From Pseudomonadota bacterium (lineage in GTDB: Bacteria > Pseudomonadota > Gammaproteobacteria > Burkholderiales > Burkholderiaceae_C): DNA of 64,000 bases. A program made the translations under genes and the position numbers. This document shows, one piece after another, positions 9,757-27,292 of this stretch. How positions within the stretch are numbered: position 1 is the stretch's first letter; every line of letters begins with the position of its first letter. The notes under the pieces were generated by a model. The model saw nothing but the letters and a program-made list of their open reading frames with translations. It searched no databases and was not told the origin of the DNA. The stretch spans positions 25,753-89,752 of the forward strand of contig JBPOIP010000030.1 of assembly GCA_052034395.1 (NCBI GenBank), read 5' to 3'.

Positions 9757-10620
9757 TCAGATCCTGGAGCGGGTCAGTACCCGGGCAAGAATGTTCAGAC
9801 CCAAAACCGCTGCGGTGATGATAAAAACGCCAGCCCACGCCAGCTTTTGCCAGTTCTCATAGGGACTCATGGCAAACTTGAAAATGGTCACTGGCAGGCT
9901 TGCCATCGGCTCACTGAGACTGCTGGTCCAGAACTGGTTGCTCAATGCCGTGAATAGCAAAGGCGCCGTCTCACCGGCAATACGCGCTACCGCCAGGAGG
10001 ACACCCGTGATCACGCCGGCTCGCGCCGCCTTGAGCGTGATGCTCAAAATGACCTTCCACTTGGGCGCACCCAACGCATAAGCTGCTTCGCGCAAACCGG
10101 GTGGAACCAGCTGAAGCATGTTCTCTGTGGTGCGGATAACCACCGGAATCACCAGCAGTGATAAAGCCAGGATCCCCGCATAGCCCGAAAAGGACTTGAA
10201 TCGGGACACCACAACGGCATACACAAATAGTCCGATCACAATGGATGGCGCAGACAGCAAAATATCATTCACAAAACGCGTCAAAGACGCCAGCCAACCC
10301 TTGGTATTGAACTCTGCCAGATAGATCCCCGCCATCACCCCGATGGGCGTGCCCAACCCGGTTGCCAGAACCACCATCAACAATGAACCGAAGATGGCGT
10401 TTGCCAATCCGCCCTCATCATTGGGAGGAGGCGTCATTTGCGTGAAGGTGGCGACCGACAATCCACCAATACCCAACAGCAATGTTTCCCACAAAATCCA
10501 GAACAACCAGAAGAGCCCGAAGGACATAGCCGCCAACGCCAAGGTCGTAGCCACGTTGTTCACAACTTTGCGGCGCGCAAATTTGGCTGCGCGTGACTGT
10601 TTTTCTGCGAGCGTGCTCAT
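9757..10620 (-). CDS. pstA: Phosphate ABC transporter permease PstA
   Basis: [13 protein letters not shown] motif, [11 protein letters not shown]. Confidence 0.95.
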
Positions 10621-11648
10621 GTTTTTGTACCTTCGCCTTTGCGCAGCTGGGACAGCAATAACTTGGACAGCGAGAGGATCACAAATGTAATAAAGAACAG
10701 CACCAATCCAAGGTACATCAACGATGCCTGGTGCAAGCCCTCACCCGCTTCGGCGAACTCATTGGCCAGCGCCGAGGTAATGCTGTTTGCCGCCTGAAAC
10801 AAGCTGAGCGAGTCCAACTGGTTGAAGTTTCCGATAACAAAAGTCACCGCCATGGTCTCGCCAATGGCACGGCCCAGGCCCAGCATGATTCCGCCAATGA
10901 CTCCCGCTTTTGTGTAGGGCAGGACAACCTTGGTGACAACCTCCCACGTCGTCGCGCCCAGCCCATAGGCGGACTCTTTCAGCAACGGAGGCGTGACTTC
11001 AAACACATCGCGCATCACTGCTGCGATAAATGGGATGATCATGATGGCCAGAATCACCCCGGCCGACAGGATACCGATACCAACCGGCGGTCCGGACACG
11101 AAAGCGCCAAGGTATGGAACCCCGGCAAATGCGGCCTGGAGTGGCTGTTGCACATACGTTGCCAGCACAGGCCCGAACACCAGCAAACCCCACATGCCAT
11201 ACACAATGGACGGCACGGCCGCCAGCAACTCGATAGCGGTACCCAATGGCCGCTTGAGCCACGCTGGCGACAACTCGGTCAAAAACAACGCAATACCAAA
11301 GCTCACGGGAACGGCGATCAACAAAGCGATGAAAGACGTTGCCAGCGTTCCATAAATCATCACCAGACCGCCAAATTCCTCCTTGACCGGATCCCATGTC
11401 GTGTTGGTCAAGAAACCAAGCCCGTACTTTTCAATGGCGGGCCATGCACTGATGGTCAGTGAAACCAGAATGGCAACCAGCATTCCCAAAGTTATGAGCG
11501 CAGCACCCTGGGCCATCCAGCCAAAGATACGGTCGGCCATGGGGCCGGAACGGGCCCTTTTGATAGGTGGAGGGTGGATCATTGCGCGAACTGACGGTGT
11601 TGCAGATTGGTGGGACGAAAAGTCGCCACTGGCCAGTGTAGATGACAT
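10617..11648 (-). CDS. pstC: Phosphate ABC transporter permease PstC
   Basis: [31 protein letters not shown]. Confidence 0.95.
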
Positions 11649-11689
11649 ATTCAGCTTTCGGTATCAACCCGAATGGCTTTTACCGCGCC

Positions 11690-12733
11690 TTACTTGAAGG
11701 CTATGGGCTTGCCAGAACCGTCCTTGATCTCGCCCCAGGCCTTTTCGATGGCGGCGATCACGGGCTTTGGCATGGGCACATAGTCCAGGTCTGCAGCGGT
11801 CTTTTCGCCGTTGGCATATGCCCAGCTAAAGAACTTCAACACTTCGGTCGCATTGGCAGGCTTGTCCTGCTTCGTATGCATCAACACAAAGGTGGCTCCA
11901 GAAATTGGCCAGGCGTCCTTGCCGGGCTGGTTTGTCAGAATCTGATAAAAAGACTTGGCCCAATCCGCACCAGCGGCCGCGGCTTTGAACGAGTCATCTT
12001 CCGGCTTGACGAAATTGCCGGCAGAGTTCTGCACGGTGGCATAGGTCATTTTGTTTTGCTTGACATAGGAATACTCTACGTATCCCATGGAATTTGGCAG
12101 GCGACCCACAAACGCTGCAACGCCCTCATTGCCTTTGCCACCAGCACCAACCGGCCAGTTGACGGCAGTACCCTCGCCTACCTTGGACTTCCACTCCGGG
12201 CTAATCTTGCTCAGGTAGTTGGTAAAGATAAAGGTCGTACCGGAACCATCAGCGCGGCGAACCTGCGCAATGGCGGCGTCTGGCAAAGCCAAAGTCGGGT
12301 TCAGGGCCTTCAGGGCCGGGTCATTCCAGCGCGAAATCTTGCCCAAGTAGATGTCAGCCAAAAGGGTGCCTGTCAACTTCAGTTGTCCAGGCTCAATACC
12401 CTTGACATTGATCACCGGAACAACGCCACCCATCACCGTTGGAAACTGCATTTGCCCTTTGGTCTTCAGCACTTCATCTGTTTGCGGCATGTCCGAAGCG
12501 CCAAAGTCCACTGTATTGGAGTCGATCTGCTTGATACCGCCACCTGAGCCGATGGACTGGTAATTGACCTTGACCTTGGTCGCCTTGTTGTAATCAGCTG
12601 CCCATTTGGAATAGATCGGCGCCGGGAAAGTCGCACCGGCACCGGTGATTTCCTGGGCGCCAGCGGCACCCGCAAAACCCAATGTTGATACGACCGCCAG
12701 GGACAGGAGTGGGAGTTTGAAAGTGATTCGCAT
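11690..12733 (-). CDS. pstS: Phosphate-binding protein PstS
   Basis: Signal peptide, GAGATFPAP, YQSIGSGGG, RADGSGTT. Confidence 0.97.
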   Translation of the reverse strand: MRITFKLPLLSLAVVSTLGFAGAAGAQEITGAGATFPAPIYSKWAADYNKATKVKVNYQSIGSGGGIKQIDSNTVDFGASDMPQTDEVLKTKGQMQFPTVMGGVVPVINVKGIEPGQLKLTGTLLADIYLGKISRWNDPALKALNPTLALPDAAIAQVRRADGSGTTFIFTNYLSKISPEWKSKVGEGTAVNWPVGAGGKGNEGVAAFVGRLPNSMGYVEYSYVKQNKMTYATVQNSAGNFVKPEDDSFKAAAAGADWAKSFYQILTNQPGKDAWPISGATFVLMHTKQDKPANATEVLKFFSWAYANGEKTAADLDYVPMPKPVIAAIEKAWGEIKDGSGKPIAFK

Positions 12734-12905: not shown

Positions 12906-12954
12906 AAGAGGCTCTTACGCTTTGATGCTTTCAACCCCAACGATGGAACGCACC

Positions 12955-13455
12955 ATGTCACTGTTCAATGTTTCTACACCTTCCCGCCGTGCCGCTCTGG
13001 TCGCAGGTCTTGTCCTTTCATTGGCCGGCTGCGCAACGCCTTCCGGCCCGGTCAGCCTGGCAGACACCATCGCCGCCAACCCGTCCCTCAGCACCCTGAA
13101 CGAATTGGTTATCAAAGCCGGGCTCACCGACACACTGAAGACCGGTGGCCCGTTCACCGTGTTTGCACCTACCAACGACGCCTTCAAGGCCGTACCCGCT
13201 GCCGCCATGGCTGACCTGGCACAGCATCCCGACAAGCTCAAAGCGGTGCTGACCTACCACGTCATTCCCGGAAAGACCATGGCAGCCGACGTCAAGAACA
13301 GCAACGTCAAGACGGTCAATGGCGCCAATCTGGCTTTGGCGAAGGCAGGTGATTTTGTAACGGTCGAAAGCGGTGCGGTCGTGGCTTCCAACCTGGTCGC
13401 AACAAACGGCGTCATCCACACGGTGGACACGGTGCTGATGCCTCCCAAGAAGTAA
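12955..13455 (+). CDS. Fasciclin (FAS1) domain lipoprotein
   Basis: Lipobox LAGC; GPFTVFAPTNDAF and ATNGVIHTVDTVL FAS1 motifs. Confidence 0.9.
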   Translation: MSLFNVSTPSRRAALVAGLVLSLAGCATPSGPVSLADTIAANPSLSTLNELVIKAGLTDTLKTGGPFTVFAPTNDAFKAVPAAAMADLAQHPDKLKAVLTYHVIPGKTMAADVKNSNVKTVNGANLALAKAGDFVTVESGAVVASNLVATNGVIHTVDTVLMPPKK

Positions 13456-13617: not shown

Positions 13618-14763
13618 ATGACCCACCCACACCATCCCAACCGGCGGCAGTCGCTGCATGCTTTGCTCGGGCTCGGCGTGGCAGTTGCCACGCCCGGGTG
13701 GGCACAGTCGCCCAGGGCTTCTGCAAGCGCCCGGACTTTGACCGTGGCACAAGTGGTGGACATGTCAACAGCCCAGGTTGATGTTTCCAAGGACTTTGTG
13801 GTTGGATCGCGCACAGCCTGGCAAGAGATCAACGCAAAAGGTGGCGTTCAGGGATCACCTGTGAAACACCTTGTGATCGAAGTGGATGGCAGTGTGGCGG
13901 GTTTGCGCGTGGCACTGGAGAGCTTGAAGTCCGAGCCGCACGTTGTTGCGGTGTTTGGCACCGCTGGCGATCGAACTGCAACCCAGTTCGCGACCGCCCT
14001 GCGCCGTGAATTGCCGGACATGCCCCATGTTGCACCATGGCTGCATAACGTCGACGCCATTACATCAACGAACACTTTTCCGATTTTCGCGTCCCGACAG
14101 GAACAGATCGCGCACGCGATCAAGTCACTGTCGGTCATGGGGATTACGCAGGTAGGTACCGTATACGGATCTGCCGCAGAGTTTGCCGTCTACCGGCGAG
14201 ACCTGGAACAGATTGCGCGATCCTTGAAACTTGCTGTCACACCGTACTACACCGAAGGGGATTTGCGGGACCTCGCACAAACCCTCACGCCAGAGAGCCC
14301 CAGGGTGCTCCTGTTTGTGGGTGGCACACCCGAACTGGTTCGCTTTGCGCAGGGCGTGGAAAAGCAGGCCGCCCAGCGCTACCTGATTGCCATGTCCGAC
14401 GTCAACCTGCAAAGCATTCAGCAGCTGGGCGCTTCCCGGTTTACCCCGATGATTGCAACCCAGGTCGTGCCCATGGTCAATTCCAGCCTGCCACTCGTCA
14501 AGGGGTACCGCGTCGCGCTCGGACGGCTGTTTGACGAGCCCCCAACCCCCTTGAGCCTGGCAGGCTACGTGTCCGCACGCTACACCTTTGAAGTCATGCA
14601 GGGCATTGACGGCCCGGTGACGCGTCAGACTGCTTTGCAAGCCTTTGGCCGACGCAGCACGATAGACCTTGGCGGCTTTCGCATTGCTCCGGACGCCAGG
14701 TACCAGGGAACAGCCTTCGTAACCCAAAGCATGGTGGCGGCCGATGGCCGTCTGGTCGGTTGA
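13618..14763 (+). CDS. Orphan periplasmic binding protein (type 1, Leu/Ile/Val-binding-like), probable Tat substrate
   Basis: NRRQSLHALLGLG twin-arginine signal; AWQEINAKGGVQG motif typical of PBP1 proteins. Confidence 0.75.
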   Translation: MTHPHHPNRRQSLHALLGLGVAVATPGWAQSPRASASARTLTVAQVVDMSTAQVDVSKDFVVGSRTAWQEINAKGGVQGSPVKHLVIEVDGSVAGLRVALESLKSEPHVVAVFGTAGDRTATQFATALRRELPDMPHVAPWLHNVDAITSTNTFPIFASRQEQIAHAIKSLSVMGITQVGTVYGSAAEFAVYRRDLEQIARSLKLAVTPYYTEGDLRDLAQTLTPESPRVLLFVGGTPELVRFAQGVEKQAAQRYLIAMSDVNLQSIQQLGASRFTPMIATQVVPMVNSSLPLVKGYRVALGRLFDEPPTPLSLAGYVSARYTFEVMQGIDGPVTRQTALQAFGRRSTIDLGGFRIAPDARYQGTAFVTQSMVAADGRLVG

Positions 14764-14846
14764 CCCAGCAGCAACTGACCAAGCGAAGGGCAAGCAGCCG
14801 GTGCTATGCTCTGGCGCTACCTCCATCTTCCAAAAATAAAGAAACA

Positions 14847-16355
14847 ATGCCAATGGGAACTCGCCTGGCCGCTGTCGATTTGGGCTCGAACAGCTTTCGT
14901 CTGGAAATTGGGCGCATTGAGCACGGCGCCTTTCAACGCACGGAATACCTGAAAGAAACCGTCCGCCAGGGCGGGGGCCTGGACGAAAACCGCAATCTGA
15001 CGCCCGCCGCCATGCAAAACGGCTGGGACTGCCTGGCCCGGTTCGGCGAGCGCCTGGCCGGGTTTCAGCCTGGCGAAGTGCGGGCAGTGGCGACTCAAAC
15101 ACTGCGTGAAGCACGCAACCGCGATGCTTTCTTGCTGCGGGCAAACACCATTCTGGGCTTCCCTATCAACGTCATTTCGGGTCGTGAGGAAGCACGGCTG
15201 ATTTACCAGGGTGTGGCGCAGATGCTGCCGCAGTCCGACGAACGCCGGGTTGTCATTGACATTGGCGGGCGGTCAACCGAACTGATTCTGGGAAAGGGAT
15301 CAACGCCCCTGGTCATGGAATCGTACCGGGTGGGCAGCATTGCATGGTCAAACCGCTACTTCCCCGATGGTCAATTCACCAAAAAATCTTTCGCCATTGC
15401 GGAAATTGCCGCGAAGGCCGTTCTGGACGAAGCACTGGACGCTTACCATCCAAGCCTCTGGGATACAGCATACGGCTCTGCCGGAACGGTCAGTGCCGTT
15501 GCAGACGTGCTTGTTGCGAGTGGATGGCCAGCCGGGTCCGTGACGCAGGATGGTCTGGATTGGCTGATGGACAAGCTGATCGCAGCGCAAAGCACCGATC
15601 GGCTGCGACTGGCCGGCATGCGCGAAGACCGCAAGGCCATCATTGGCGGCGGCGTGAGTATCGTGCGGGCACTATTCAGCCTGTTAGGCATCAAAACCTT
15701 GCATCAGGCAGCCGGCGGCTTGCGCCACGGCCTGATCTGCGATTTGCTGGGTGCGTCCAGTCAGGATGACGATTTGCGCGCCCTGACCGTTCAGCGGCTG
15801 GCCAGCAAGTTTGGCGCCGATGCGACCCATGGCGAGCGCGTTGGCAAAGTCGCCGCCCAGTTGTTTGGGCAACTGGTGGCCTCACCCAACAAGTTGGCAC
15901 CTACGCAAGCCAGCCGACTCTTGCAGAAGCTGCAATGGGCCGCGCAACTGCACGAGATCGGCAGCCACATTTCACACAGCGACTACCACAAGCACGGCGC
16001 CTACATTCTCGACAACGCAGATGCCATGGGGTTTTCACTCTCGGAAATGCATCGCCTGAGCGTTCTGGTATTAGGGCACCGCGGCAAGCTGCGCAAGATC
16101 GAAGCGGAACTGGAAGAGCCCGACCTGGCAGCACAGCTTGTAGCGCTGCGCCTGGCAGTCATTCTGAGTCATGCCCGGCGCGACCCGGACCTGAATGGGC
16201 TGACCCTCACGCACACCGATGCGCAAGGGCGCAATATGCAATTGCGATGCCGTGCCGGATGGGCGGAAGCTTTTCCGCAATCAGCCTACCTGTTGCGTGA
16301 AGAAGCGCAGGCCTGGCAGAAAACTGCCTGGTCACTCGAAGTAACAGGTTGTTAA
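14847..16355 (+). CDS. ppx: Exopolyphosphatase (Ppx/GppA family)
   Basis: AAVDLGSNSFRL, ISGREEARL, DIGGRSTE, AAQLHEIG HD-like region. Confidence 0.93.
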   Translation: MPMGTRLAAVDLGSNSFRLEIGRIEHGAFQRTEYLKETVRQGGGLDENRNLTPAAMQNGWDCLARFGERLAGFQPGEVRAVATQTLREARNRDAFLLRANTILGFPINVISGREEARLIYQGVAQMLPQSDERRVVIDIGGRSTELILGKGSTPLVMESYRVGSIAWSNRYFPDGQFTKKSFAIAEIAAKAVLDEALDAYHPSLWDTAYGSAGTVSAVADVLVASGWPAGSVTQDGLDWLMDKLIAAQSTDRLRLAGMREDRKAIIGGGVSIVRALFSLLGIKTLHQAAGGLRHGLICDLLGASSQDDDLRALTVQRLASKFGADATHGERVGKVAAQLFGQLVASPNKLAPTQASRLLQKLQWAAQLHEIGSHISHSDYHKHGAYILDNADAMGFSLSEMHRLSVLVLGHRGKLRKIEAELEEPDLAAQLVALRLAVILSHARRDPDLNGLTLTHTDAQGRNMQLRCRAGWAEAFPQSAYLLREEAQAWQKTAWSLEVTGC

Positions 16356-16781: not shown

Positions 16782-18086
16782 TCACCGCGTGGCACGGGGC
16801 CGCGACTGCCGTGTCTCAAAATGCTTAAGCGCGAAATAAGTCAGAGCACCCACCAACACCGCGCCCAGCAAAAAGCTTCCAAAAGCCAGGGGCCACGGAA
16901 CGCCCTGGGTCATCATTGAAAACTCTGACATACCTCCCACCCCGGCCAAAATGTTGATGGGCATGAACACCACACCAAACACGGTCAGCTGGTTGACCCG
17001 CTTGTTCTGGTTGATGTTGATAAAGCCAATTGTTGCGTCCATCAGAAAATTGATCTTGTCGAACAGAAACGACGTGTGACTGTTCAAGGATTCAATGTTC
17101 TGCAAGATCTGCCGGGCATCGTCAATCTGGCCAGGCGACAATATCTTGCAGCGAATCAAGAAAAGGATGGCGCGTTGCGTGTCCAGAATATTGCTCCGGA
17201 TGCGGCCATTCAAATCCTCTTCCTCGGCAATGTCACCCAGTATGGCGGCCGCCTCCCGGTCGCTGATGGCTTCACTCAAGACCTGACGCCCCACCTTGCC
17301 CAGTGTGGTGTAGATGTCCTCCAGTGAATCGGCCGAGTACTCAACATCGGCGCCGTATAGATCCATCAGCAAGTCGTTGCAATCCGACGCGTAGCCTGGT
17401 TGTGTGGCGGCTCGTCGGCGCTGCAACCGGAACACCGGCAGGTCTTCGTTGCGAAGGGAGAACAATATGCCGGCATGGACGATGAAGACCACCGGCACGC
17501 TGCGCGAATTGCCCTCGCGGTCAAGCAGGAAGTTGGAGTGCAGATAGACATCACCGTTGGCTTCCACGTGGAACCGTGTGCTGACTTCCAGATCGGTGAT
17601 TTCGCCGGGATCGGGCAGTGCCAGACCAAAATGGGCACCTACAAAGCTGCGCTCGGCTCTGGTTGCGTTGATGAGATCGATCCAGACCGGTCGAATACCC
17701 TCGAGATCTTTGCGGCTGTCGATGGCAACCTGTTGCAGCCGGCCGTCCCGCACTTCAAAAGCACTGATCTGTGTCGCATCAAATGCCGGCTCACGGTTAC
17801 CAACCAGCCGCTCCCGGCACGCGTCAGACACCTCCCACAGGATTTCGTTCTGACGACCTTCAGGCACCTGCTGCCAGAACAGGGCGGCGTCCGGGTGCGG
17901 CAATGCCTCCAGAATGGCACCGATTTCTTCGGATGGTGTTTGGGCGATGAAGTTCTGCAACTCGGCTGAGTGCTGTTTTTGCACCAGCGTTTCAATCATC
18001 TCGTGGCGCGGCATGGTTTGCCCGTGGATCATCCCCTCCACGCGCCGCTGCTTTCGCAGCATCTCCGAGACTTTTTCCATCGACAT
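16782..18086 (-). CDS. corA: CorA-family Mg2+/Co2+ transporter with an MgtE_N-like N-terminal extension
   Basis: WIDLINAT, LEVSTRF, FLFDKINFLMDATIGFININQN, two C-terminal TM helices with GGMSEF; N-terminal EIGAILEALP...EILWEVSD; GGAG RBS before ATG 18086. Confidence 0.85.
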   Translation of the reverse strand: MSMEKVSEMLRKQRRVEGMIHGQTMPRHEMIETLVQKQHSAELQNFIAQTPSEEIGAILEALPHPDAALFWQQVPEGRQNEILWEVSDACRERLVGNREPAFDATQISAFEVRDGRLQQVAIDSRKDLEGIRPVWIDLINATRAERSFVGAHFGLALPDPGEITDLEVSTRFHVEANGDVYLHSNFLLDREGNSRSVPVVFIVHAGILFSLRNEDLPVFRLQRRRAATQPGYASDCNDLLMDLYGADVEYSADSLEDIYTTLGKVGRQVLSEAISDREAAAILGDIAEEEDLNGRIRSNILDTQRAILFLIRCKILSPGQIDDARQILQNIESLNSHTSFLFDKINFLMDATIGFININQNKRVNQLTVFGVVFMPINILAGVGGMSEFSMMTQGVPWPLAFGSFLLGAVLVGALTYFALKHFETRQSRPRATR

Positions 18087-18237
18087 CCTGATTGCTCCGC
18101 TGGTTGCTTGTTGTCCATTGCATGAATAGACCAAGGAAAGGTGCCTACTGCCTGATTACATGCAATTGCAACGCAATGTCACATATTTGAAACCAGGCCC
18201 AAACACAATCGATACATTCCACTGTAGAAGCTTGTTC

Positions 18238-18498
18238 ATGTACAAAACCGACACCTCAGAAATTTCAGGTACTGGCTTGCGCTACGTATCAAAACAAGGC
18301 GGATCACCATTTCAGGGCGCGGGGAGCACAGGCGAAACAATCAGCTGCATCAAGTGCGGCAAACATCGGCTGAGAACGCGCGGATCCGTCAAACGCTACC
18401 TGAATTCGTTGCTGTTCTTCTGTTTTGACTGCAAACCAGAAAAGCCTGCCGTCATTCAGAAGATCCGTCCATCGGATCCTTCAACGATTTCCGTTTAG
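18238..18498 (+). CDS. Small hypothetical protein with C4 Zn-finger-like motif
   Basis: 86 aa; SCIKCGKHR...FFCFDCK; GLRY..K.GGSPF N-terminal block. Confidence 0.65.
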   Translation: MYKTDTSEISGTGLRYVSKQGGSPFQGAGSTGETISCIKCGKHRLRTRGSVKRYLNSLLFFCFDCKPEKPAVIQKIRPSDPSTISV

Positions 18499-20410
18499 CC
18501 GGTTCTTTTCCGCTCCAGGACTGCAACGCCCGAAGCAGTGAGCGCTTTTTCACCTGATGGCGACCCATGCGCCGCAAGATATCGTCCAGGGTACGGATCG
18601 CATCGGTTATGTACGGCCCTTTGTTCAGCATCACGCACTCGGCCCGAACACCCAGACCCGCATCCGATATCTCAGCCCGCGACGGCACGCCAGTCTTGGC
18701 CAGCGTCTCCAGAACCTGGGTCGCCCAGATCACAGGCATGTGGGCCGCTTCAGCGCACCAGAGTATCTCTTCCTGCACTTCGGCCAGACGCTCATAGCCA
18801 CATTCCACAGCAAGGTCGCCCCGGGCGATCATCACACCCGCACAGCCGCCTGACATGGCCGCCAGCATGAGTTCAGGCAGATTCTCGAAACCCCGGATCG
18901 TTTCAATCTTCAGGACAATTCCAATGTCATTGCGCCCCAAGCGCGCCAGGTGTTCACGCAACTGGTACACATCATCCGCGCGCTGCACAAAGGAAAGCCC
19001 CACCATGTCCGCCTCCTTCACAACGGCTTCAAGGTCCTGCAGGTCTTTCTCGGTCAATGCAGGCAAGTCCAGTTCGCTGTCGGGGAAATTGATGCCTTTG
19101 TCTCCGGTCAGCTTTTCACCCCCTTCGCGCGCCTGCGTAATCTCGACTTCCAACCCGTCCTGCGCAACCTTGCGGATGACACCACCAATCTTGCCGTCGT
19201 CAAACCACATGCGCTCACCAACACAGACCTGATCAATGACTTGTGGCAACGTGCAGGCAATATGCGCCATCTCCCTGCTTACGCTGCCGGAAACCCCGTC
19301 AACCGCAGCAGCATTTCCAAGACCACCGCGGGTCACCCGGATGTGATCGCCCAGATGGAGATGAAGCGATCCGGGCAAGCTTTCGATTTGCCCTGGCAAA
19401 GTCACGCGCCACTTTTTCCCTTCGTGCCCGTGAATGGTCAATTGTGTTTCGGGCGTGAGATAGGCCGTCTGCACGCTCTCGGCAACCGCACTGGTTTCAT
19501 CACGCTGAACCACCAGCAAATGCCGCTTGGCGCCTCGGGCGTCCAGAAAGTCAATTTGCGTTCCCGCCTCAAGGCGTGCCAGCCATTTGCTTTCGACGCC
19601 AATACATCCGTCCACGTTTGGCATGCGCGCCACTGCTGGATCTGAGACCATTCCCAACCGGTAGGGCTTGTAAGGACGGCCAAACTCGTCTTTCTGGGGA
19701 CGCATGCGCAGCACGGCCGGCTTTGGCGTCACGTCCCCGGTTCTGATTTTTGGCCCTCCCAAGTCCATGAGAATGCGCACCTTGCGTTGCACCGACTTGG
19801 CGGCACGGCGCACATTCTGTGCAATGGCCGTCCAGGCTTGGGCATCATCGTGCGCGCAGTTGATACGTGCAATGTCCATTCCCGCCTCAACCAACTCCCG
19901 GGCGACGTGGTAGTCCGTGGCGGCGTTGGAAGGCATTGTGACCATGATGCGCACCGACCGCCCAGAGGGGCTGCTTCCCAGCAAATCGACGCTGTGATCC
20001 TGAAGCAAGCGCCGGCTGCTGACGCTTCCCGCCGGTTCCTCTGCGGACTTGTCCAGCCAATCCTGGCCCGTGAGGCAATGCAGTATTCCCAGAACTTTGT
20101 CCAGATTGGCCAACACATGGGACTCAGAACGTCCCAGTGATGAGAGTCCCAACCAGGCCAGTTGTTCCTGCAATGGCCTGAGGTCATGCACACGCAGCGC
20201 CAGGTAATGGATGAGGTTTCGCGCACTCACCTGATACTTTTGGGACACGCGCGAAAGTGCGGTATGCATCTGCCCTTCACGTGCGTGCATCGACTGTCGC
20301 AACAGCTGAAGCTCTTCAATGAGCGAAAGACAGACCTTCTCGCGCGAGACGGTCGCCGATGGCTTGCTTGAAACGGTGCGTTTGGGCTGACGTGGTTTGC
20401 TGTTGATCAT
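18452..20410 (-). CDS. pyk: Atypical long pyruvate kinase-family protein
   Basis: RIMVTMP, ARINCAH, GPKIRTG, KGINFP, KIET, VMIARGDLAVE, ATQVLE, RAEISDA. Confidence 0.85.
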   Translation of the reverse strand: MINSKPRQPKRTVSSKPSATVSREKVCLSLIEELQLLRQSMHAREGQMHTALSRVSQKYQVSARNLIHYLALRVHDLRPLQEQLAWLGLSSLGRSESHVLANLDKVLGILHCLTGQDWLDKSAEEPAGSVSSRRLLQDHSVDLLGSSPSGRSVRIMVTMPSNAATDYHVARELVEAGMDIARINCAHDDAQAWTAIAQNVRRAAKSVQRKVRILMDLGGPKIRTGDVTPKPAVLRMRPQKDEFGRPYKPYRLGMVSDPAVARMPNVDGCIGVESKWLARLEAGTQIDFLDARGAKRHLLVVQRDETSAVAESVQTAYLTPETQLTIHGHEGKKWRVTLPGQIESLPGSLHLHLGDHIRVTRGGLGNAAAVDGVSGSVSREMAHIACTLPQVIDQVCVGERMWFDDGKIGGVIRKVAQDGLEVEITQAREGGEKLTGDKGINFPDSELDLPALTEKDLQDLEAVVKEADMVGLSFVQRADDVYQLREHLARLGRNDIGIVLKIETIRGFENLPELMLAAMSGGCAGVMIARGDLAVECGYERLAEVQEEILWCAEAAHMPVIWATQVLETLAKTGVPSRAEISDAGLGVRAECVMLNKGPYITDAIRTLDDILRRMGRHQVKKRSLLRALQSWSGKEPAKRKSLKDPMDGSSE

Positions 20411-20541
20411 CGTGCGATGATGGCACACGCATGCTGCAAATTTGTGACAAAGCGGTCGAGCAGTTCACCGCAGCAACCACGATTTGCTGTCAGATACAAA
20501 CCAGTTGGACGTTCAGGCCGCCCGGACAGAATTTTCCGGTT

Positions 20542-20757
20542 TCACGCCGGATGGTTGGTCAGGGCCTTCCAGCGATGATTGAACGATCGGCCAATTTCAC
20601 CGTGTCGGTGCACCGACCCACAACTGGTGGACCGGGAAACTTTCTCCGAGTAGGACTCAATTTCCGCCTGCAATTGCAGGACATGGGGATGATTCGCACC
20701 GAGCGCCACACCCAGTTTGTGGTGGAGCCGCTTTAAATTGCCAAGATGCTTCAGCAT
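20542..20757 (-). CDS. Small hypothetical protein, 71 aa
   Basis: GAGG RBS before ATG; MLKHLGNLKRLHHKLGVALGANHPHVLQLQAEIE reads as an amphipathic helical hairpin. Confidence 0.55.
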   Translation of the reverse strand: MLKHLGNLKRLHHKLGVALGANHPHVLQLQAEIESYSEKVSRSTSCGSVHRHGEIGRSFNHRWKALTNHPA

Positions 20758-20923
20758 ATATACCTCTGTGCACGTCAATCGCACCTGCGTGCAATCGATT
20801 GAACTGAAATCTGAGTGACCAGCCGTAGCATATACGGGTTTACCCTTAATCCTCACTTCCAATGAAAGATTTCAGTCGGCCACGCACTGTCGAAGACAGG
20901 ATGGCTCATTTAGACACTGTTTT

Positions 20924-20952
20924 GTGACAGATCGATGAAAAATTCGTGACCT
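20924..20952 (-). promoter_or_regulatory. Triple Pho-box-like repeat
   Basis: Minus strand AGGTCAC-GAAT-TTTTCAT-CGAT-CTGTCAC with 11-bp period; weak -10. Confidence 0.45.
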
Positions 20953-21098
20953 GCGAGACGGGCCACTCGATGACAACGGGCATTTCCGGGCAAATCTCCG
21001 CGAAGCATGCACAACCAGGGAGAGAGCGAGTCACAAAAAATTGCTTCAAAGGTCAATTGAATATAAACTGTATATACCGTTTATTTTCAAGGTCCTAT

Positions 21099-21551
21099 AT
21101 GACAACCGAAGCTTCCAAACCCGTCAAACCGTTGACAACCCCAGCAAAAACTGCACCCGAAGCGGCTGTCAAACCAGCAGCCAAGTCCGTAAAGGTCGTG
21201 GCATCCAAAGTGGCATCCAAGATGGCAAAAACCCCCACCACCAAGCCCAAAGCCGTGCCTGCACCCAAAGTAACGACCAAATCGGCAAGCGCACCACAAG
21301 CCGCCAAAGACGCCAAAGTCAAGAAGCCCAAAATGGTTCGCGACAGCTTTACGTTCCCGAAAGACGAGTATGCAGTGCTGGACTTGCTGAAGCTGCGCGC
21401 GGCCAAGCTGGGCAGTCCGGTGAAAAAAACCGAGTTGCTGCGCGCCGGTGTAAAGGCCATTGCGGCTATGGCAGACGATGCATTCCTGCTCTCACTGCGC
21501 GCTGTGCCCAGCCTCAAGACAGGCCGCCCTGCCAAAAGCAAGTCGGCGTAA
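21099..21551 (+). CDS. Lys/Ala/Pro-rich histone-H1-like tail plus VRDSF-type (RHH-like) C-terminal domain
   Basis: 18 Lys in the first 78 aa; C-terminal KMVRDSFTFPKDEY...KKTELLRAGV...KTGRP. Confidence 0.8.
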   Translation: MTTEASKPVKPLTTPAKTAPEAAVKPAAKSVKVVASKVASKMAKTPTTKPKAVPAPKVTTKSASAPQAAKDAKVKKPKMVRDSFTFPKDEYAVLDLLKLRAAKLGSPVKKTELLRAGVKAIAAMADDAFLLSLRAVPSLKTGRPAKSKSA

Positions 21552-21558
21552 GGCACAC

Positions 21559-22020
21559 TTACATCAAGTCAGGCGTCTGGACCGTCACCACCACGGTTTG
21601 CCCGGTGGCGTCGCGCTCACGGTAGCGCAGCCACCATACTGCCCCTTTCTTGACAGCGCATTCCGATGCGCTCAAACCCAACAAGCTTGAAACAGTCTGT
21701 CCCAGCGTGGGTTGATGGCCCACGACCAGCACACAGCCTTTGGCGTGTGGCCATTGGACCAACTCCAGCAACTGGTCTGCGGCCCCCATTGGGGCAATCA
21801 CCGGGTTCAATTTGAACTTTCGCCCCAAAGCCAGCGCCGTCTGCTCCGCACGGCGTGCGGGGCTCACCCATATGCGTGTGCTGTCTGGCAACTGGCGGTC
21901 CAGCCAGGCCGCCATGCGAGTGGCCTGCTTTTCGCCACGCGGGGTCAGCGCCCGGAGCATGTCGTCACTGTCGGCTGTGCCTTCCACGGCCTCTGCGTGC
22001 CGCCACAAAATCAGGTCCAT
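21559..22020 (-). CDS. sixA: Phosphohistidine phosphatase SixA
   Basis: LILWRHAEA, SPARRAEQT, LVVGHQPTL. Confidence 0.92.
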   Translation of the reverse strand: MDLILWRHAEAVEGTADSDDMLRALTPRGEKQATRMAAWLDRQLPDSTRIWVSPARRAEQTALALGRKFKLNPVIAPMGAADQLLELVQWPHAKGCVLVVGHQPTLGQTVSSLLGLSASECAVKKGAVWWLRYRERDATGQTVVVTVQTPDLM

Positions 22021-22034
22021 CGTTCGCTCTCCGT

Positions 22035-24128
22035 TCAGGCCTTCTCAACGTCTGCGTAACGCGCCATCAGTGCAACCTGGGCACCATGCAATGGGGTCTT
22101 TCCATCTCCCTGGAAGCGCCGGTATTTGCCGTCTGCACCCAGATCCCATGCGTCAACGCCATCGTGCAGGTAGGCCACCAGACACTCGTCAACCAGTCGC
22201 TGGCGTTGGACCGGGTCGGTCACGGGCCACGCCAGTTCCACGCGACGCACCATGTTGCGGTTCATCCAGTCGGCACTGGAGAGGTAAAGGTCTTCGTTAT
22301 CGCCTTCACGGAAATAGAAAACCCGCGAGTGCTCCAGAAACCGGCCAATCACCGAACGCACCCGAATGTTGTCAGTGTGCCCTGGCACCTGTGCGGGCAG
22401 CATGCAGGCGCCGCGCACAATCAGGTCGATCCGCACACCCTGGCGACCAGCCCGCATCAAACTGTGAATCAGCGCTTCGTCGGTCAGCGAGTTCATTTTG
22501 GCAACGATACGGGTAGCTTTGCCCCGGCTTGCTGCAGCGCCCAGTGCATCAATCCTTGCAATCATGTTGCGGTGCAGGTTGAAGGGTGCAAACCACAACT
22601 TGCGCAACCGCGGCAAACGACTTTGGCTTGCCAGATGCACAAACACATGCTCCATATCGGTTGTGAGCGCCGTGTCAGCTGTGATATGGCTTACATCGGT
22701 GTAAAGGCGTGCCGTGCGCGGGTTGTAATTGCCCGTCGACAGATGACCATAGCGTTTGAGGTTCTTGCCCTCGCGCCGCGTGATCAGCATCATCTTGGCG
22801 TGGGTTTTGAGGCCCACCACGCCATACAGCACCTGCGCTCCAATGGATTCGAGCATTTCGGCCCAGTTGATATTGGCTTCTTCGTCAAAGCGGGCCTTTA
22901 GCTCCACCACCACGGTAACTTCTTTGCCCAGACGCACGGCTTCGCGCAGCAGATCCATCAATTCGGAGTCGGGGCCAGTGCGGTAAATGGTTTGCTTGAT
23001 GGCCAATACATTCGGATCATTCACCGCTTCACGCAAAAGCCCCAGCACCCCATCAAAGCTCTCAAAGGGCTGGTGAATCAGAATGTCGCCCTGCTTCAAT
23101 TGCTCAAAAATGCTTTGTCCATTTGCCATTTGAGCAGGGTAGGACGCACGGTACGGTGTAAAACACAGGTCCGGGCGGTCAACCAGGTCAATAAGCTGGG
23201 TCAATCGCACCAGGTTCACCGGACCTGCCACGCGGTACAGGGCTTTGGCAGGCAAATCAAACTGTTTGAGCAAGAAATCAGACAGGTACTCGGAACAACC
23301 CGCCGACACCTCCAAGCGGACCGCCTGCCCGTAATGGCGGTGAACCAGCCCCTGACGCAGGGCCATGCGCAGGTTTTTGACATCGTCTTCGTCCACGGCC
23401 AGATCAGAATGCCGCGTCACACGGAACTGCGAGAACTGCCCCACCGAGCGCCCCGCAAACAGCTCAGCCAGGTGCGCGCGGATGATGCTCGACAGTGACA
23501 CGAACAGCAGGCGGTCACCCGAAACCTTGGCAGGCATGCGGATCAGGCGCGGCAGCACGCGCGGCACCTTGACGATGGCAATTTCATTCTCGCGACCAAA
23601 CGCATCCCGCCCGCCCAGACGCACGATAAAGTTCAGCGACTTGTTGGCGACTTGCGGAAACGGGTGGGATGGGTCCAGACCCACCGGAATCAGCAACGGG
23701 CGTACTTCCCGCTCGAAATACTGCTTGACCCAGTGGCGTTGCGCCGCATTGCGTTCGCCGTGGGAAATGATCTTGATGCCAAGTTTCTCAAACGCCGGCA
23801 TCAGTTTCTCGTTGTAAAGCGTGTATTGCCGCTCAACGATAGCGTGCACCGTTGCCGACAATCGCTCGAACGAGCCTACCGAAAACAGGCCCTTTCGTTC
23901 TTTGGCCTGATTGGCGGTCAGGTGCGGCTCGGCACGCACTTCAAAAAACTCGTCAAGATTGGATGAAACGATGCACAGATAGCGCAAACGCTCCAGCAGC
24001 GGAACATCATCGCGAACAGCCCAGTCCAGCACACGCTCATTGAAGGCAAGAATGCTGTGGTCGCGGTCCAGCAGATCGGGCGCCTCCAGGGGAGCCTGCA
24101 ATTTGGGGTTGCGAAGAAATGACAACAT
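22035..24128 (-). CDS. ppk1: Polyphosphate kinase 1
   Basis: SSNLDEFFEVR, SHPFPQV, IKQTIYRT, ELKARFDEEANI, KTHAK, GRFLEHSR, SSADWMNRN. Confidence 0.97.
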   Translation of the reverse strand: MLSFLRNPKLQAPLEAPDLLDRDHSILAFNERVLDWAVRDDVPLLERLRYLCIVSSNLDEFFEVRAEPHLTANQAKERKGLFSVGSFERLSATVHAIVERQYTLYNEKLMPAFEKLGIKIISHGERNAAQRHWVKQYFEREVRPLLIPVGLDPSHPFPQVANKSLNFIVRLGGRDAFGRENEIAIVKVPRVLPRLIRMPAKVSGDRLLFVSLSSIIRAHLAELFAGRSVGQFSQFRVTRHSDLAVDEDDVKNLRMALRQGLVHRHYGQAVRLEVSAGCSEYLSDFLLKQFDLPAKALYRVAGPVNLVRLTQLIDLVDRPDLCFTPYRASYPAQMANGQSIFEQLKQGDILIHQPFESFDGVLGLLREAVNDPNVLAIKQTIYRTGPDSELMDLLREAVRLGKEVTVVVELKARFDEEANINWAEMLESIGAQVLYGVVGLKTHAKMMLITRREGKNLKRYGHLSTGNYNPRTARLYTDVSHITADTALTTDMEHVFVHLASQSRLPRLRKLWFAPFNLHRNMIARIDALGAAASRGKATRIVAKMNSLTDEALIHSLMRAGRQGVRIDLIVRGACMLPAQVPGHTDNIRVRSVIGRFLEHSRVFYFREGDNEDLYLSSADWMNRNMVRRVELAWPVTDPVQRQRLVDECLVAYLHDGVDAWDLGADGKYRRFQGDGKTPLHGAQVALMARYADVEKA

Positions 24129-24166
24129 ATGCACGCCTTGACTATGACACAGGAGTGAAGAATTGT

Positions 24167-25249
24167 TTACGAAATTGATGACAGTGGTGTGACGTTTCCA
24201 TGAAGCAAGGGGCGCACATCCAGCAAGTTGCCCTTGCGCGCAGGAACCAGCTGATTTAGAAACAGTTGGGCGGCGGGACCCCAACCGAACGCCAACGCGC
24301 GCTCGCGGGCCAGGTGGCGTGGCACCGCAAGCGCCCCATACCAGGCGCGGGCCAGATCATCGTCCAGCACACCACCGGCTGGTGGTGACCCTACTACTTC
24401 CAGTGGTCCATCCACCGGGTAGGCCGCCACCGGTGTGCCGGTGGCCATTGCTTCTAGCATCACCAGACCAAAGGTTTCCGAGCGACTGGGCATGACAAAT
24501 ACATCAGCGGATGCATACACCTGGGCCAACACATCCCGCGGAAGTACGCCAAGCCAGTGCGCCTTGGGAAACCGCTGGCGCAATCCTTCCTCCAGAGGCC
24601 CGACACCACAAACAATTTTGGTCCCTGGGATGTCGAGCGTCAGAAAAGCCTCAATGTTCTTCTCGTAGGAAACGCGACCGACAAAGAGGGATATGGGACG
24701 GGCCAGCTGTCCCAGCGGTGCATAGGGCTGGGGTACCTCGCAATACGTGAACAGTTGCATGTCGACGCCATGCGTCCAGTTGCGCAGGTTGGGAAATCCT
24801 TTGGCCTGCAATATCTTCAGTACGTTGTGCGTAGGCACCAAGACGCCCGAGGAGTGCTTGTGAAAGTGCCGGAACAGCGCGTAGCCCATCCACAATGGAA
24901 CTTTCAACGCAGCTTTCAGTATTTCGGGAAACCGCGTGTGGTACGCCGTGGTGAACGCCAGAGCGCGCTTTATGCAATAGGCGCGTGCGGCCCAGCCCAG
25001 CGGACCTTCGGTGGCCAGATGAATGGCATCCGGCGCAATGGCATCGAGCCGGCGTGCCAGAGTCTTCGCAGGACGCACTGCAAGATCAATTCCGGCATAG
25101 CCCGGGCAAGGCCGGGTATCAAAAAATCCAGGATGTATGACTTCGACCTGGTGCCCCAGGGCTTGCATCTCGCGCACCAGCTCCACCAGGGTCGTGACAA
25201 CGCCATTGACCTGTGGCTGCCATGCATCGGTCACCAGGACCAGCTTCAT
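24167..25249 (-). CDS. GT4 glycosyltransferase, Agt-like (predicted glyco/glucuronosyl-DAG synthase)
   Basis: VTDAWQPQVNGVVTTL, IHLATEGPLG, FVGRVSYEKNIEAFL, SRSETFGLVMLEAMATG; 4-nt overlap with the plcP-like gene. Confidence 0.85.
   Translation of the reverse strand: MKLVLVTDAWQPQVNGVVTTLVELVREMQALGHQVEVIHPGFFDTRPCPGYAGIDLAVRPAKTLARRLDAIAPDAIHLATEGPLGWAARAYCIKRALAFTTAYHTRFPEILKAALKVPLWMGYALFRHFHKHSSGVLVPTHNVLKILQAKGFPNLRNWTHGVDMQLFTYCEVPQPYAPLGQLARPISLFVGRVSYEKNIEAFLTLDIPGTKIVCGVGPLEEGLRQRFPKAHWLGVLPRDVLAQVYASADVFVMPSRSETFGLVMLEAMATGTPVAAYPVDGPLEVVGSPPAGGVLDDDLARAWYGALAVPRHLARERALAFGWGPAAQLFLNQLVPARKGNLLDVRPLLHGNVTPLSSIS
24178..24195 (-). promoter_or_regulatory. Pho box upstream of ppk1, inside the 3' end of the glycosyltransferase gene
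   Basis: Minus strand ACGTCAC-ACCA-CTGTCAT, then 10 nt, then AACAAT. Confidence 0.6.
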
Positions 25250-26127
25250 GCCAGTGCCGCTTGAGGAGTCGGCACGGGTATCACGGCGGCCTCTGCATCG
25301 TTCCAGTAAACCAGTTCCAGCCGCCCATCGTGGTGCTCAACCAGTGCGCTGCGGCTTTCCACCCAGTCGCCATCATTGCAGTACAGGGTGCCGTGAATGT
25401 CACGCATCTCTGCGCGGTGGATATGCCCGCACACCACACCATCGTGTCCATGGGCACGCGCAGCTTGCGCCACCGCCACCTCGAAGTCGGTCACGTAATT
25501 GAGCGCTGATTTGACTTTTTGCTTCAGGTAAGCCGACAGCGACCAGTAGGGCAGCCCCATGCGCGCCCTGAGCGTATTGAGGTAACGATTGAGCTTGAGC
25601 GTGAATTCATACAGGTTGTCGCCCAAGAAGGCCAGCCACTTGGCGCATTGAATGACACCATCGAAATAGTCGCCATGCGTGACCCACAGGCGTCGCCCGT
25701 CGGCTGTGGTGTGCACGGCATCGTCACGAACCTCAATGCCGCCGAACTCATGACCCAAAAAGCCCCGGGCAAACTCGTCATGGTTGCCAGGAATGAACAC
25801 CACTTTGCAGCCTTTACGCGCGCGGCGCAGCAGTTTTTGGACCACATCGTTATGCGACTGGGGCCAGTACCAGCGCCGGCGCAACTGCCAGCCGTCCACA
25901 ATGTCGCCCACGAGGTAGAGGTGATCGCTGGAGTGAACCTTGAGAAAATCCAGCAATGCATTGGCCTGACAGCCCGCCGTGCCCAGATGAATGTCCGAAA
26001 TGAAAATGGCCCGGTAGCGCCTCGCACGCTGATCGTCATCTTCATCATGGGAGTCAACGCTGTTTGGCTGGGGCACACCCAGCATGCCTTGCATCAGGGG
26101 CGAGAAGGCATCAGGCCCGGCACGCAT
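25246..26127 (-). CDS. Metallophosphoesterase, PlcP/LpxH2-like (predicted phospholipase C)
   Basis: FISDIHLG, LVGDIVDGW, PGNHD, THGD, CGHIH, NDGDWVES; ATG overlaps the upstream TGA. Confidence 0.85.
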   Translation of the reverse strand: MRAGPDAFSPLMQGMLGVPQPNSVDSHDEDDDQRARRYRAIFISDIHLGTAGCQANALLDFLKVHSSDHLYLVGDIVDGWQLRRRWYWPQSHNDVVQKLLRRARKGCKVVFIPGNHDEFARGFLGHEFGGIEVRDDAVHTTADGRRLWVTHGDYFDGVIQCAKWLAFLGDNLYEFTLKLNRYLNTLRARMGLPYWSLSAYLKQKVKSALNYVTDFEVAVAQAARAHGHDGVVCGHIHRAEMRDIHGTLYCNDGDWVESRSALVEHHDGRLELVYWNDAEAAVIPVPTPQAALA

Positions 26128-26972
26128 CAGGCGCCCAGAAAGTGTTTGCGATAACGTGATGGCAAATCGGCAATGCGCATCATCATCGGAAGGTCCGCCG
26201 AGTTGAAGTCGGGGTCCCACGCCGGCGGGCCAAGAACCTTGGCGCCCAGGCGCAAATAGCCCTTTATCAGTGCGGGCGGCTCCACCTCCAGCGAAGCATC
26301 CAGCCGTTCAACCGGCAGGGGCAGGCGGGGGCGAACATGGTATTCAATCGGTGCCAGATGGGTGGCCTGAACCTGGCGCCAGATGCTGGCCGCCATGTCG
26401 CCACTGGCAACACCGTTGTGCAACATGGGTATGCTGGCGCACCCAATCATCGTGTCGAGCTGGTTGCGCACCATGAATGCGCCCAATGCACCCCACAACG
26501 CCATGATCACTCCGCCATGGCGGTGGTCCTTGTGCACGCAGCTGCGCCCCAGTTCCACCATGCGGTCCCGCAGGCTGCGCAGCCGGGTCAGGTCAAACTC
26601 CGTGTCGCTGTAGGTGCTGCCCACGCGCTGTGCCTGCACCGGTGTGAGCACGCGGTAGGTTCCGATAACCTGCTCGCTTGCCGCATCAATCACCAGCAGA
26701 TGTTCGCAGAAGTTGTCAAAGAGGTCGATGTCGTGCCCCGGAATGGGCGTGTTCAGCCGCGCGCCCATTTCGCCAGCGAACACATCGTGGCGCAGCCGCT
26801 GAGCGGCGCGTACTTCATCCTGGTGCCTGGCCCAGGTCACCCGAATCGCGGCGCGCTCCTGTGCGGCAGTGTGTGCGCCAGCGGCTTGTGCGGTGCAAAG
26901 GGCATCGGCCGTGCCAAAAGTCTGCGTTGTTTGCAGGGAAGATGCGCTTCCCGATGCGGTGGAACCCGTCAT
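26127..26972 (-). CDS. GNAT-fold N-acyltransferase, OlsB-like (ornithine lipid synthesis)
   Basis: AQRLRHDVFAGEMGA, DIDLFDNFCEHLLV, VIGTYRVL, VELGRSCVH, PALIKGYLRLGAKV, DPDFNSAD. Confidence 0.8.
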   Translation of the reverse strand: MTGSTASGSASSLQTTQTFGTADALCTAQAAGAHTAAQERAAIRVTWARHQDEVRAAQRLRHDVFAGEMGARLNTPIPGHDIDLFDNFCEHLLVIDAASEQVIGTYRVLTPVQAQRVGSTYSDTEFDLTRLRSLRDRMVELGRSCVHKDHRHGGVIMALWGALGAFMVRNQLDTMIGCASIPMLHNGVASGDMAASIWRQVQATHLAPIEYHVRPRLPLPVERLDASLEVEPPALIKGYLRLGAKVLGPPAWDPDFNSADLPMMMRIADLPSRYRKHFLGA

Positions 26973-26974
26973 GC

Positions 26975-27205
26975 TCAACCTCCGTGTTGCACAGTGAGGC
27001 TCAAATCGCCACCACCCTGATGGAGCGCATCAAGCCAGGGTCGCGTGCCTGCCCGAAACCGCAGGCCTCCAGGTCTATTGGCCAGTGCACGCGCCGTGCA
27101 TCGCAAAATGCGCAGGCACTGGTGTTCCAGATCGTGGGTAAATCGCTGGTGCGTAGCCGCATGGGCCTGACCGGACTGTTTTGGGTGGTGCAATTGCGCT
27201 TCCAT
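26975..27205 (-). CDS. Putative 76-aa His-rich small protein, first ORF of the olsB-like operon
   Basis: GGAG RBS before ATG; stop 2 nt before the olsB-like start; no recognisable domain. Confidence 0.35.
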   Translation of the reverse strand: MEAQLHHPKQSGQAHAATHQRFTHDLEHQCLRILRCTARALANRPGGLRFRAGTRPWLDALHQGGGDLSLTVQHGG

Positions 27206-27252: not shown

Positions 27253-27292
27253 ATGACGCCTGCACGTCAGTTCGATGGCAGTTTCATGACAG
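27253..27292 (-). promoter_or_regulatory. Quadruple Pho box upstream of the lipid-remodelling/ppk1 operon
   Basis: Minus strand CTGTCAT-GAAA-CTGCCAT-CGAA-CTGACGT-GCAG-GCGTCAT, then 10 nt, then CAGAAT. Confidence 0.75.

Follow-up and report, generated by a model that had tools for sequence, protein, structure and literature searches.

The closest described relative of the gene treated here is pyk2 of Corynebacterium glutamicum, whose product (NCgl2809; Chai et al. 2016; PMC5112673) is a pyruvate kinase (PK) of 67.6 kDa with a 120-amino acid (aa) N-terminal extension and no C domain, the only long PK of that organism. Pyk2 is homohexameric, requires Mn2+ together with a monovalent cation, and is a genuine but slow PK (kcat 5.6/s; S0.5 for phosphoenolpyruvate, PEP, 4.6 mM); it is activated by fructose 1,6-bisphosphate and inhibited by ATP, even though it lacks the C domain (PMC5112673). 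It complements a pyk1 deletion and lets a pyk1 pyk2 double mutant grow again, and its overexpression gives a cellular PK activity equal to that of Pyk1; the gene is co-transcribed with ldhA and is induced by oxygen deprivation (PMC5112673). Here we describe a long PK of the same type encoded on the minus strand, at 18452..20410, of a 64-kb stretch of contig JBPOIP010000030.1 from a bacterium of the Burkholderiales (the window, i.e., the whole 64,000 nucleotides that were analysed). The reading that we consider probable is that the gene encodes a Pyk2-type accessory PK of ordinary chemistry, which has come under the control of PhoB and is kept by polyphosphate (polyP) and phosphate genes. From sequence comparison we infer the activity of the protein, its control by PhoB, and any coupling to polyP.

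The open reading frame (ORF) is free of stops over 18452..20428 (minus strand; P0001) and would give 658 aa from a GTG at 20428. The ATG at 20410 (M7 of that translation), which gives 652 aa, is the likelier start because a relative with 95% identity (P0002) is also 652 aa long. A preliminary description, made from the letters of the sequence, had placed the gene at 18452–20410, in agreement with the ATG start, and every motif that it quoted is found in the translation (ARNLIHYLALR, residues 69–79; DLRPLQEQL, 82–90; LGLSSLGRSE, 93–102; GPKIRTG, 225–231; VMLNKG, 599–604).

The window PK is a member of an annotated protein family, NF011314 (PRK14725), and not a new kind of protein. The family profile, which has 614 positions, matches residues 24–640 over profile positions 6–612 with 775.2 bits, against a cut-off of 642; the canonical PK profile TIGR01064 gives 226.5 bits, under its cut-off of 306.4. 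The family comprises over 150 clusters (50% identity) that match over the full length, occupies at least 597 loci in species-representative genomes, and is found in Pseudomonadota, Acidobacteriota, Bacteroidota, Actinomycetota, Planctomycetota, Gemmatimonadota, and other phyla. When 90 members were placed on a tree with 15 canonical PKs from carrier genomes, they formed one clade with 100% support, within which the phyla are interleaved. Our search of the PDB returned no structure of the family, the canonical PKs there matching over the barrel only, and a literature search on “PRK14725” found no paper. The databases label a large, multi-phylum family merely “pyruvate kinase,” and behind this label stand one biochemical study and no solved structure.

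That study is the one on Pyk2. When the NF011314 profile was run against 14 named control genomes, C. glutamicum was the sole match, above the cut-off, and this match together with the published description places Pyk2 in the same family. The two proteins are alike in the N-terminal extension of approximately 120 aa, in a barrel split by a long insert, in the missing C domain, and in being an extra PK beside a canonical one. They differ in genetic setting: ldhA and oxygen deprivation in C. glutamicum; pst, ppx, ppk1, CHAD, and lipid-remodelling genes together with Pho-box-like sites in the window.

The preliminary description had pointed to an N-terminal helical extension, an enlarged insert in the B-domain region, and the lack of a C domain. 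Pfam, an AlphaFold2 model, and residue counts bear out all three features. Pfam finds the PK barrel alone (PF00224), in two stretches, and no PK_C domain (PF02887). The model, computed from an alignment of 54 diverse homologues, has a predicted local distance difference test score (pLDDT) of 88.5 and a predicted template modelling score (pTM) of 0.86; in a Foldseek search against the PDB its best matches are PKs (E ~1e-28). Residues 29–150 (19979..20344, minus strand, as are all parts of the gene) form a helical, family-specific domain with conserved residues. Barrel part 1 (residues 157–232; 19733..19960; Pfam and alignment) is separated from barrel part 2 (residues 456–626; 18551..19063; likewise Pfam and alignment) by a strand-rich region, the enlarged lid or B-domain (residues 233–455; 19064..19732; alignment, model, and hhalign), and the modelled chain stops approximately 30 residues past the final barrel helix. 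The spacing between the equivalents of R119 and D177 is 179 residues in the window PK versus 52 in the 15 canonical PKs, and the tail past the ML..G motif is 42 residues versus 162. Compared with canonical enzymes (PykA/PykF, TIGR01064; PDB 4yng, 5ws9), the window PK shares the TIM-barrel, all PEP, Mg2+, and nucleotide ligands, Lys117, and Leu113, while it lacks the C domain, adds approximately 130 N-terminal and approximately 125 lid residues, and falls in a separate clade below the TIGR01064 cut-off.

Within the N-terminal domain, N71, R79, Q87, L90, and E102 are invariant in the 90 members, Y75 is kept in 88/90 and R84 in 84/90. Folded alone, the domain reaches a pLDDT of 86. A fold search with VIA-align over 48,161 chains returned only generic helical bundles (Z <= 6.8), a result that says nothing for a new fold, and a search for look-alikes in the ESM Atlas gave nothing informative (best score 0.79). 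The lid contains a weak internal repeat, residues 257–296 versus 362–411 (window 19200–19660, minus strand), to which hhalign assigns a probability of 64–66%; the repeated sequences are GTQIDFLDARG and GERMWFDDGKIGG. This repeat suggests that the enlarged lid may have arisen through a partial duplication of the B-domain.

Is the active site that of a PK? Residues were numbered after rabbit muscle PK through a HMMER alignment to 7r6y, and conservation was counted over the 90 members. In barrel part 1, R188, N190, H193, D222, K227, and R229 of the window PK correspond to R72, N74, H77, D112, position 117, and R119 of the rabbit enzyme; K444, inside the lid region, corresponds to K206; in barrel part 2, K507, E509, R536, D538, and T570 are conserved. 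The equivalents of R72, N74, H77, D112, R119, D177, K269, E271, A292-R293-G294-D295, and T327 are invariant across the family and that of K206 is kept in 89/90 members, so that the canonical ligand set (R72, N74, D112, R119, K206, K269, E271, D295, T327) is complete in the window PK. The family also has active-site changes of its own: S76A in 89/90 members (within the motif NCAHDD), S361N in 90/90, and a new lysine, Lys603, in 90/90. The canonical MLSGETA loop has become MLN----KG, i.e., Asn602 occupies the place of S361, the four residues GETA are deleted, and Glu363 is gone; Asn602 and Lys603, invariant across the 90 members, stand in for the S361-GETA loop. The window PK carries both family signatures, NCAHDD and MLNKG, each of which is present in 89–90 of the 90 members. 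The VMLNKG that had been noted earlier in place of VMLSGE is thus real and is more exactly described as S361N plus a GETA deletion that removes Glu363. With the ligand residues retained, the window PK most likely still catalyses the conversion of PEP and ADP to pyruvate and ATP.

Two further expectations drawn from motifs need to be revised. The replacement of GPEIRTG by GPKIRTG is present but is no distinguishing mark: all family members have Lys117 and Leu113, as do all of the 15 canonical PKs from carrier genomes, and both canonical PKs of the window genome also read GPKIR. The published K+-independent cluster is marked by Lys117, Leu113, Gln114, and Leu, Ile, or Val at 120 (PMC4284704, PMC8835810). 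Against the signature in PMC8835810, K227 and L223 of the window PK fit and G224 and T230 deviate: Lys117 and Leu113 are common to the window PK and the cluster, whereas position 114 is Gly (A, G, or P in the family) and position 120 is Thr, typical of K+-dependent enzymes. Because these two positions deviate and Pyk2 was reported to need a monovalent cation, the K+-independence that the preliminary description read from the lysine cannot be assumed for the window PK. The two canonical PKs of the same genome (contigs C8 and C33) show the K+-independent signature in full (GPKIR and then I or V, with Leu113 and Gln114), and the organism has three Lys117 PKs in total. The missing C domain had likewise been taken to mean a non-allosteric enzyme, a view contradicted by the sole characterized member, Pyk2, with its activation by fructose 1,6-bisphosphate and inhibition by ATP (PMC5112673). 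Motifs alone are an unsafe guide to K+-independence or to the lack of allostery.

The window PK is an accessory, third PK; the earlier proposal that it is not the main glycolytic enzyme of its organism is borne out. The genome holds two canonical PKs with a PK_C domain (C8:2901-4301 and C33:27513-28922), and a PK_C search of the genome found the domain only in these two other PK genes. A canonical PK also accompanies the long one in every carrier genome examined, 29/29 in the same class and 4/4 in other groups. The spread of the gene is patchy: carriers make up 29/400 genomes in the class, 11/251 in the family, and 8/151 Mycobacteriales (4–7%), and the gene is absent from the sole other sampled genome of the same genus. 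It has probably moved between lineages.

We are interested in what accompanies such an accessory enzyme. We searched for Pho boxes (sense strand, <=2 mismatches, −400..+30) upstream of orthologues at 30 loci obtained by even sampling of class and family, a sample chosen against selection bias. A Pho box precedes 10/30 PK genes and 6/336 other genes of the same loci (Fisher 1.7e-8), a comparison made with the proteobacterial consensus, by which other phyla are under-tested. Joined by five loci from a set of 80, these ten make up a boxed set of 15 loci. In 11/15 the first in-frame ATG lies 14–39 nt past the box, and in six of them an in-frame stop places the box outside the ORF. The ATG follows the end of the box by only 19–24 nt in L094, L097, L099, L106, L115, L118, and L005. 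Spacings of this order suggest that the mRNA leaders are very short or missing; in the seven named loci, transcription would start at or next to the start codon, and the mRNA may be leaderless. Taken together, the upstream sites make it appear that PhoB switches the gene on under phosphate stress, here and in many other Proteobacteria.

A pair of loci shows the arrangement in a compact form. In L095:7160-11000, a perfect Pho box, CTGTCACTGAACTGTCAT, is followed on one strand by an 88-codon ORF, a CorA-like gene, the long PK gene, and an M14 peptidase gene; L096 has the same order, and the box is perfect or has one mismatch in the two loci. The CorA-like protein of L095 is 73% identical to that of the window. 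The two loci look like a Pho-driven operon that unites three genes scattered over the window island.

Do particular genes recur near the long PK? A universal partner was considered and rejected: across 80 loci, the 134 immediate neighbours represent 155 Pfam families, and no family occurs more than three times. At 29 independent loci, the neighbours within two genes on either side amount to 111 proteins of 93 families; CHAD is the most frequent with five occurrences, and others are GT4 (three), His_Phos_1 (two), Ppx (one), and PPK1 (one). An early count by tblastn with the polyP proteins of the window found CHAD near the gene in 2/80 loci; this is an under-count, because the domain is divergent, and was superseded by iterated hidden Markov model searches over 8 kb in either locus set (29 even, top 80). 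By these searches, a CHAD, PPK1, PPX, or PPK2 gene lies within 8 kb in 6/29 loci of the even sample and 11/80 of the top-80 set, directly adjacent to the PK gene in four and seven of them, and a phosphate-related signal of any kind occurs in 16/29 and 26/80, respectively. The adjacent cases include loci of Gemmatimonadota (L015), Myxococcota (L052), Acidobacteriota (L030), and Mycolicibacterium (L051). Of the polyP-type neighbourhoods that we saw, the most compact belongs to a Burkholderiaceae metagenome-assembled genome (L011:5650-12000), where PPK2, CHAD, long PK, and CorA-like genes stand in a row. A CorA-like gene occurs near the long PK in seven loci. Near the gene in about a dozen loci of beta- and gammaproteobacteria is a set of GT4, PAP2, metallophosphoesterase, and GNAT genes that looks like phosphate-starvation lipid remodelling. 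Among close relatives we found three differing arrangements, and phosphate genes adjoin the PK gene in all of them.

The preliminary description had tied the gene to polyP, and named as evidence to the contrary a sole pyk, ordinary kinetics, and homologues unlinked to ppk, ppx, or CHAD genes. Two of these three do not apply, as the gene is one of three pyk genes and the linkage is there: CHAD is the top neighbour, CHAD, PPK1, PPX, or PPK2 genes are near in several phyla, and upstream Pho boxes are enriched. As far as gene order and upstream sites can tell, the long PK is deployed with the Pho regulon and, among kinds of gene, most often with polyP genes. Our literature searches found no paper that connects a PK with the Pho regulon or with CHAD and polyP granules, and the Accumulibacter papers mention the canonical pyk alone. 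What is new beyond the databases is the recurrence of an accessory PK downstream of Pho boxes and in the company of CHAD, PPK, and PPX genes.

In the window itself, the long PK gene lies in a phosphate island. On one side are pstA, pstC, and pstS (9757–12733, minus strand), a fasciclin gene (12922–13455, plus), ppx for an exopolyphosphatase (14760–16355, plus; Pfam), and, directly downstream of PK, the CorA-like channel gene (16782..18134, minus), a recurrent neighbour of the family; the gap between PK and the CorA-like gene is 318 nt, on the same strand and free of any terminator-like site. On the other side are a small Lys-rich gene (21097–21551, plus), a sixA-like gene (21559–22020, minus), ppk1 (22035–24284, minus), a lipid-remodelling-like set of GT4, metallophosphoesterase, and GNAT (Acetyltransf_5) genes (24167–26978, minus), and a gene for a CYTH-CHAD protein (27816–29327, plus). 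The product of the small gene between PK and sixA has a Lys/Ala-rich tail and a short C-terminal domain; homologues of this gene stand beside sixA in L005 and near a CHAD gene in L077.

Four tandem Pho-box arrays with an 11-bp phase are observed in the window against 0.4 expected, and they precede pstS, the fasciclin gene, the GNAT operon, and the PK gene. The one at the GT4/metallophosphoesterase/GNAT genes spans 27264–27292, and a Pho-box-like site is also present in the sixA/ppk1 region (24178–24195). The Pho-box-like array of the PK gene (7-4-7-4-7; 20913..20941, minus) is in sense orientation approximately 500 nt upstream and is followed by TAAATG at a spacing equal to that between the pstS box and its −10 hexamer TAAAGT; we found no terminator-like site between this array and the PK gene. 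A second, weak site, TTGTCACAAATTTGCAGC (20433..20450, minus), has five mismatches and ends 22 nt before the ATG at 20410, the same spacing as that of a three-mismatch box in the nearest relative, L005. As a promoter, the distal box would leave an unexplained leader of approximately 490 nt. A 71-codon ORF between distal box and PK (20542–20757, minus) was considered and is probably no gene, as none of 110 related loci contains a homologue. Rfam gave no match on 18000–21200, hence no known leader RNA there.

How well does a PhoB-controlled accessory PK of ordinary chemistry account for these observations? Several points weigh against it. Related genomes do not count as independent observations, which makes the P values optimistic; even so, the effect sizes are large. 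The immediate neighbours are very diverse, as counted above, and about half of the sampled loci are without any phosphate-related signal. In the window, the strong box lies far upstream with the non-conserved 71-codon ORF in between, and the proximal site is poor, with its five mismatches. The one characterized homologue, C. glutamicum Pyk2, is tied to ldhA and oxygen deprivation and not to phosphate (PMC5112673). Finally, the poor kinetics of Pyk2 together with S76A, S361N, and the loss of Glu363 leave room for another preferred substrate, which we regard as possible and less likely. Some of these points fit an ordinary spare glycolytic isozyme, not truly connected with phosphate, that has come to lie in this island by chance through the gene order of a single lineage: the lack of a universal neighbour, the loci (about half) that show no phosphate-related signal, and the link of pyk2 to ldhA and oxygen deprivation (PMC5112673). 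Such an accident is hard to reconcile with Pho boxes at 10/30 PK genes against 6/336 controls, with CHAD as the top neighbour family, with adjacent polyP genes in unrelated phyla, and with phosphate genes that adjoin the PK in three differing arrangements among close relatives, and we therefore consider the spare isozyme an unlikely explanation.

The preliminary description had raised a neofunctionalized phosphotransferase, in which PEP would be used or made with polyP, pyrophosphate, a non-ADP nucleotide, or water, PK activity being a side reaction; with water as acceptor, the enzyme would be a PEP phosphatase that recycles phosphate. The family-invariant changes at the active site (S76A, S361N, the new Lys603, the lost Glu363), the doubled lid, the low kcat of 5.6/s and high S0.5 for PEP of 4.6 mM of Pyk2 (PMC5112673), and CHAD and PPK2 genes adjacent in several loci could all be read in this way. 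Set against them, the PEP, metal, and nucleotide ligands are invariant or nearly so (H77 and R119; K206 in 89/90), and Pyk2 complements the pyk1 deletion, rescues the pyk1 pyk2 double mutant, and equals Pyk1 activity when overexpressed (PMC5112673). Nor do Pfam and NCBIfam searches detect in the window PK any similarity to PPK1, PPK2, or PPX, or to any polyP enzyme family; the matches are to PK families, with the exception of weak, sub-threshold matches to the TIM-barrel aldolase families HpcH_HpaI and GarL. A change of chemistry is thus improbable in our judgement. A role outside catalysis has also been weighed: the protein might regulate or scaffold polyP granules, the N-terminal domain binding polyP or a CHAD protein and catalysis being secondary. 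The invariant or nearly invariant Asn, Arg, Gln, and Glu residues of that domain, the adjacent CHAD genes, and the hexameric state of Pyk2 (PMC5112673) would suit a scaffold; a catalytic site conserved in full speaks for catalysis as the function under selection, the N-terminal domain gave no informative fold match, and we give this idea very little credence.

If the long PK is an accessory enzyme of ordinary chemistry under PhoB control, its role might be pictured as follows. PhoB would induce the gene under phosphate stress, and the gene would be kept beside CHAD, ppk1, ppx, ppk2, pst/phoU, and phospholipid-replacement genes and the CorA-like channel. The enzyme would sustain flux from PEP to pyruvate and regenerate ATP while phosphate is short, and, once the pools of sugar phosphates and adenylates have collapsed, a PK that lacks the effector-binding C domain may serve the cell well. 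Near PPK1, it may also remove ADP and so pull the reversible PPK1 reaction towards polyP. Assays of polyphosphate kinases routinely include PEP and PK, which regenerate ATP and remove inhibitory ADP (10.1101/2023.12.22.573107); as PPK1 is reversible and inhibited by ADP, a PK beside PPK1 would have a simple rationale.

It is tempting to go one step further and to speculate that the long PK belongs to the polyP machinery as a dedicated component: induced by PhoB, recruited to the granule through its N-terminal domain or a CHAD partner, and driving PPK1 to polyP by ATP regeneration and ADP removal, or else acting as a direct phosphotransferase between PEP and polyP or a different acceptor. We hold this stronger version to be doubtful; if it were true, central carbon metabolism would be wired directly into phosphate storage. 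Should the comparative result on Pho boxes and polyP neighbours hold at the bench, the family would offer a PK isozyme specific to phosphate starvation and a candidate partner that regenerates ATP for polyphosphate kinase in vivo. It would also bear on the polyP-accumulating bacteria of wastewater treatment and on how lower glycolysis may run when phosphorylated effectors and adenylates are scarce.

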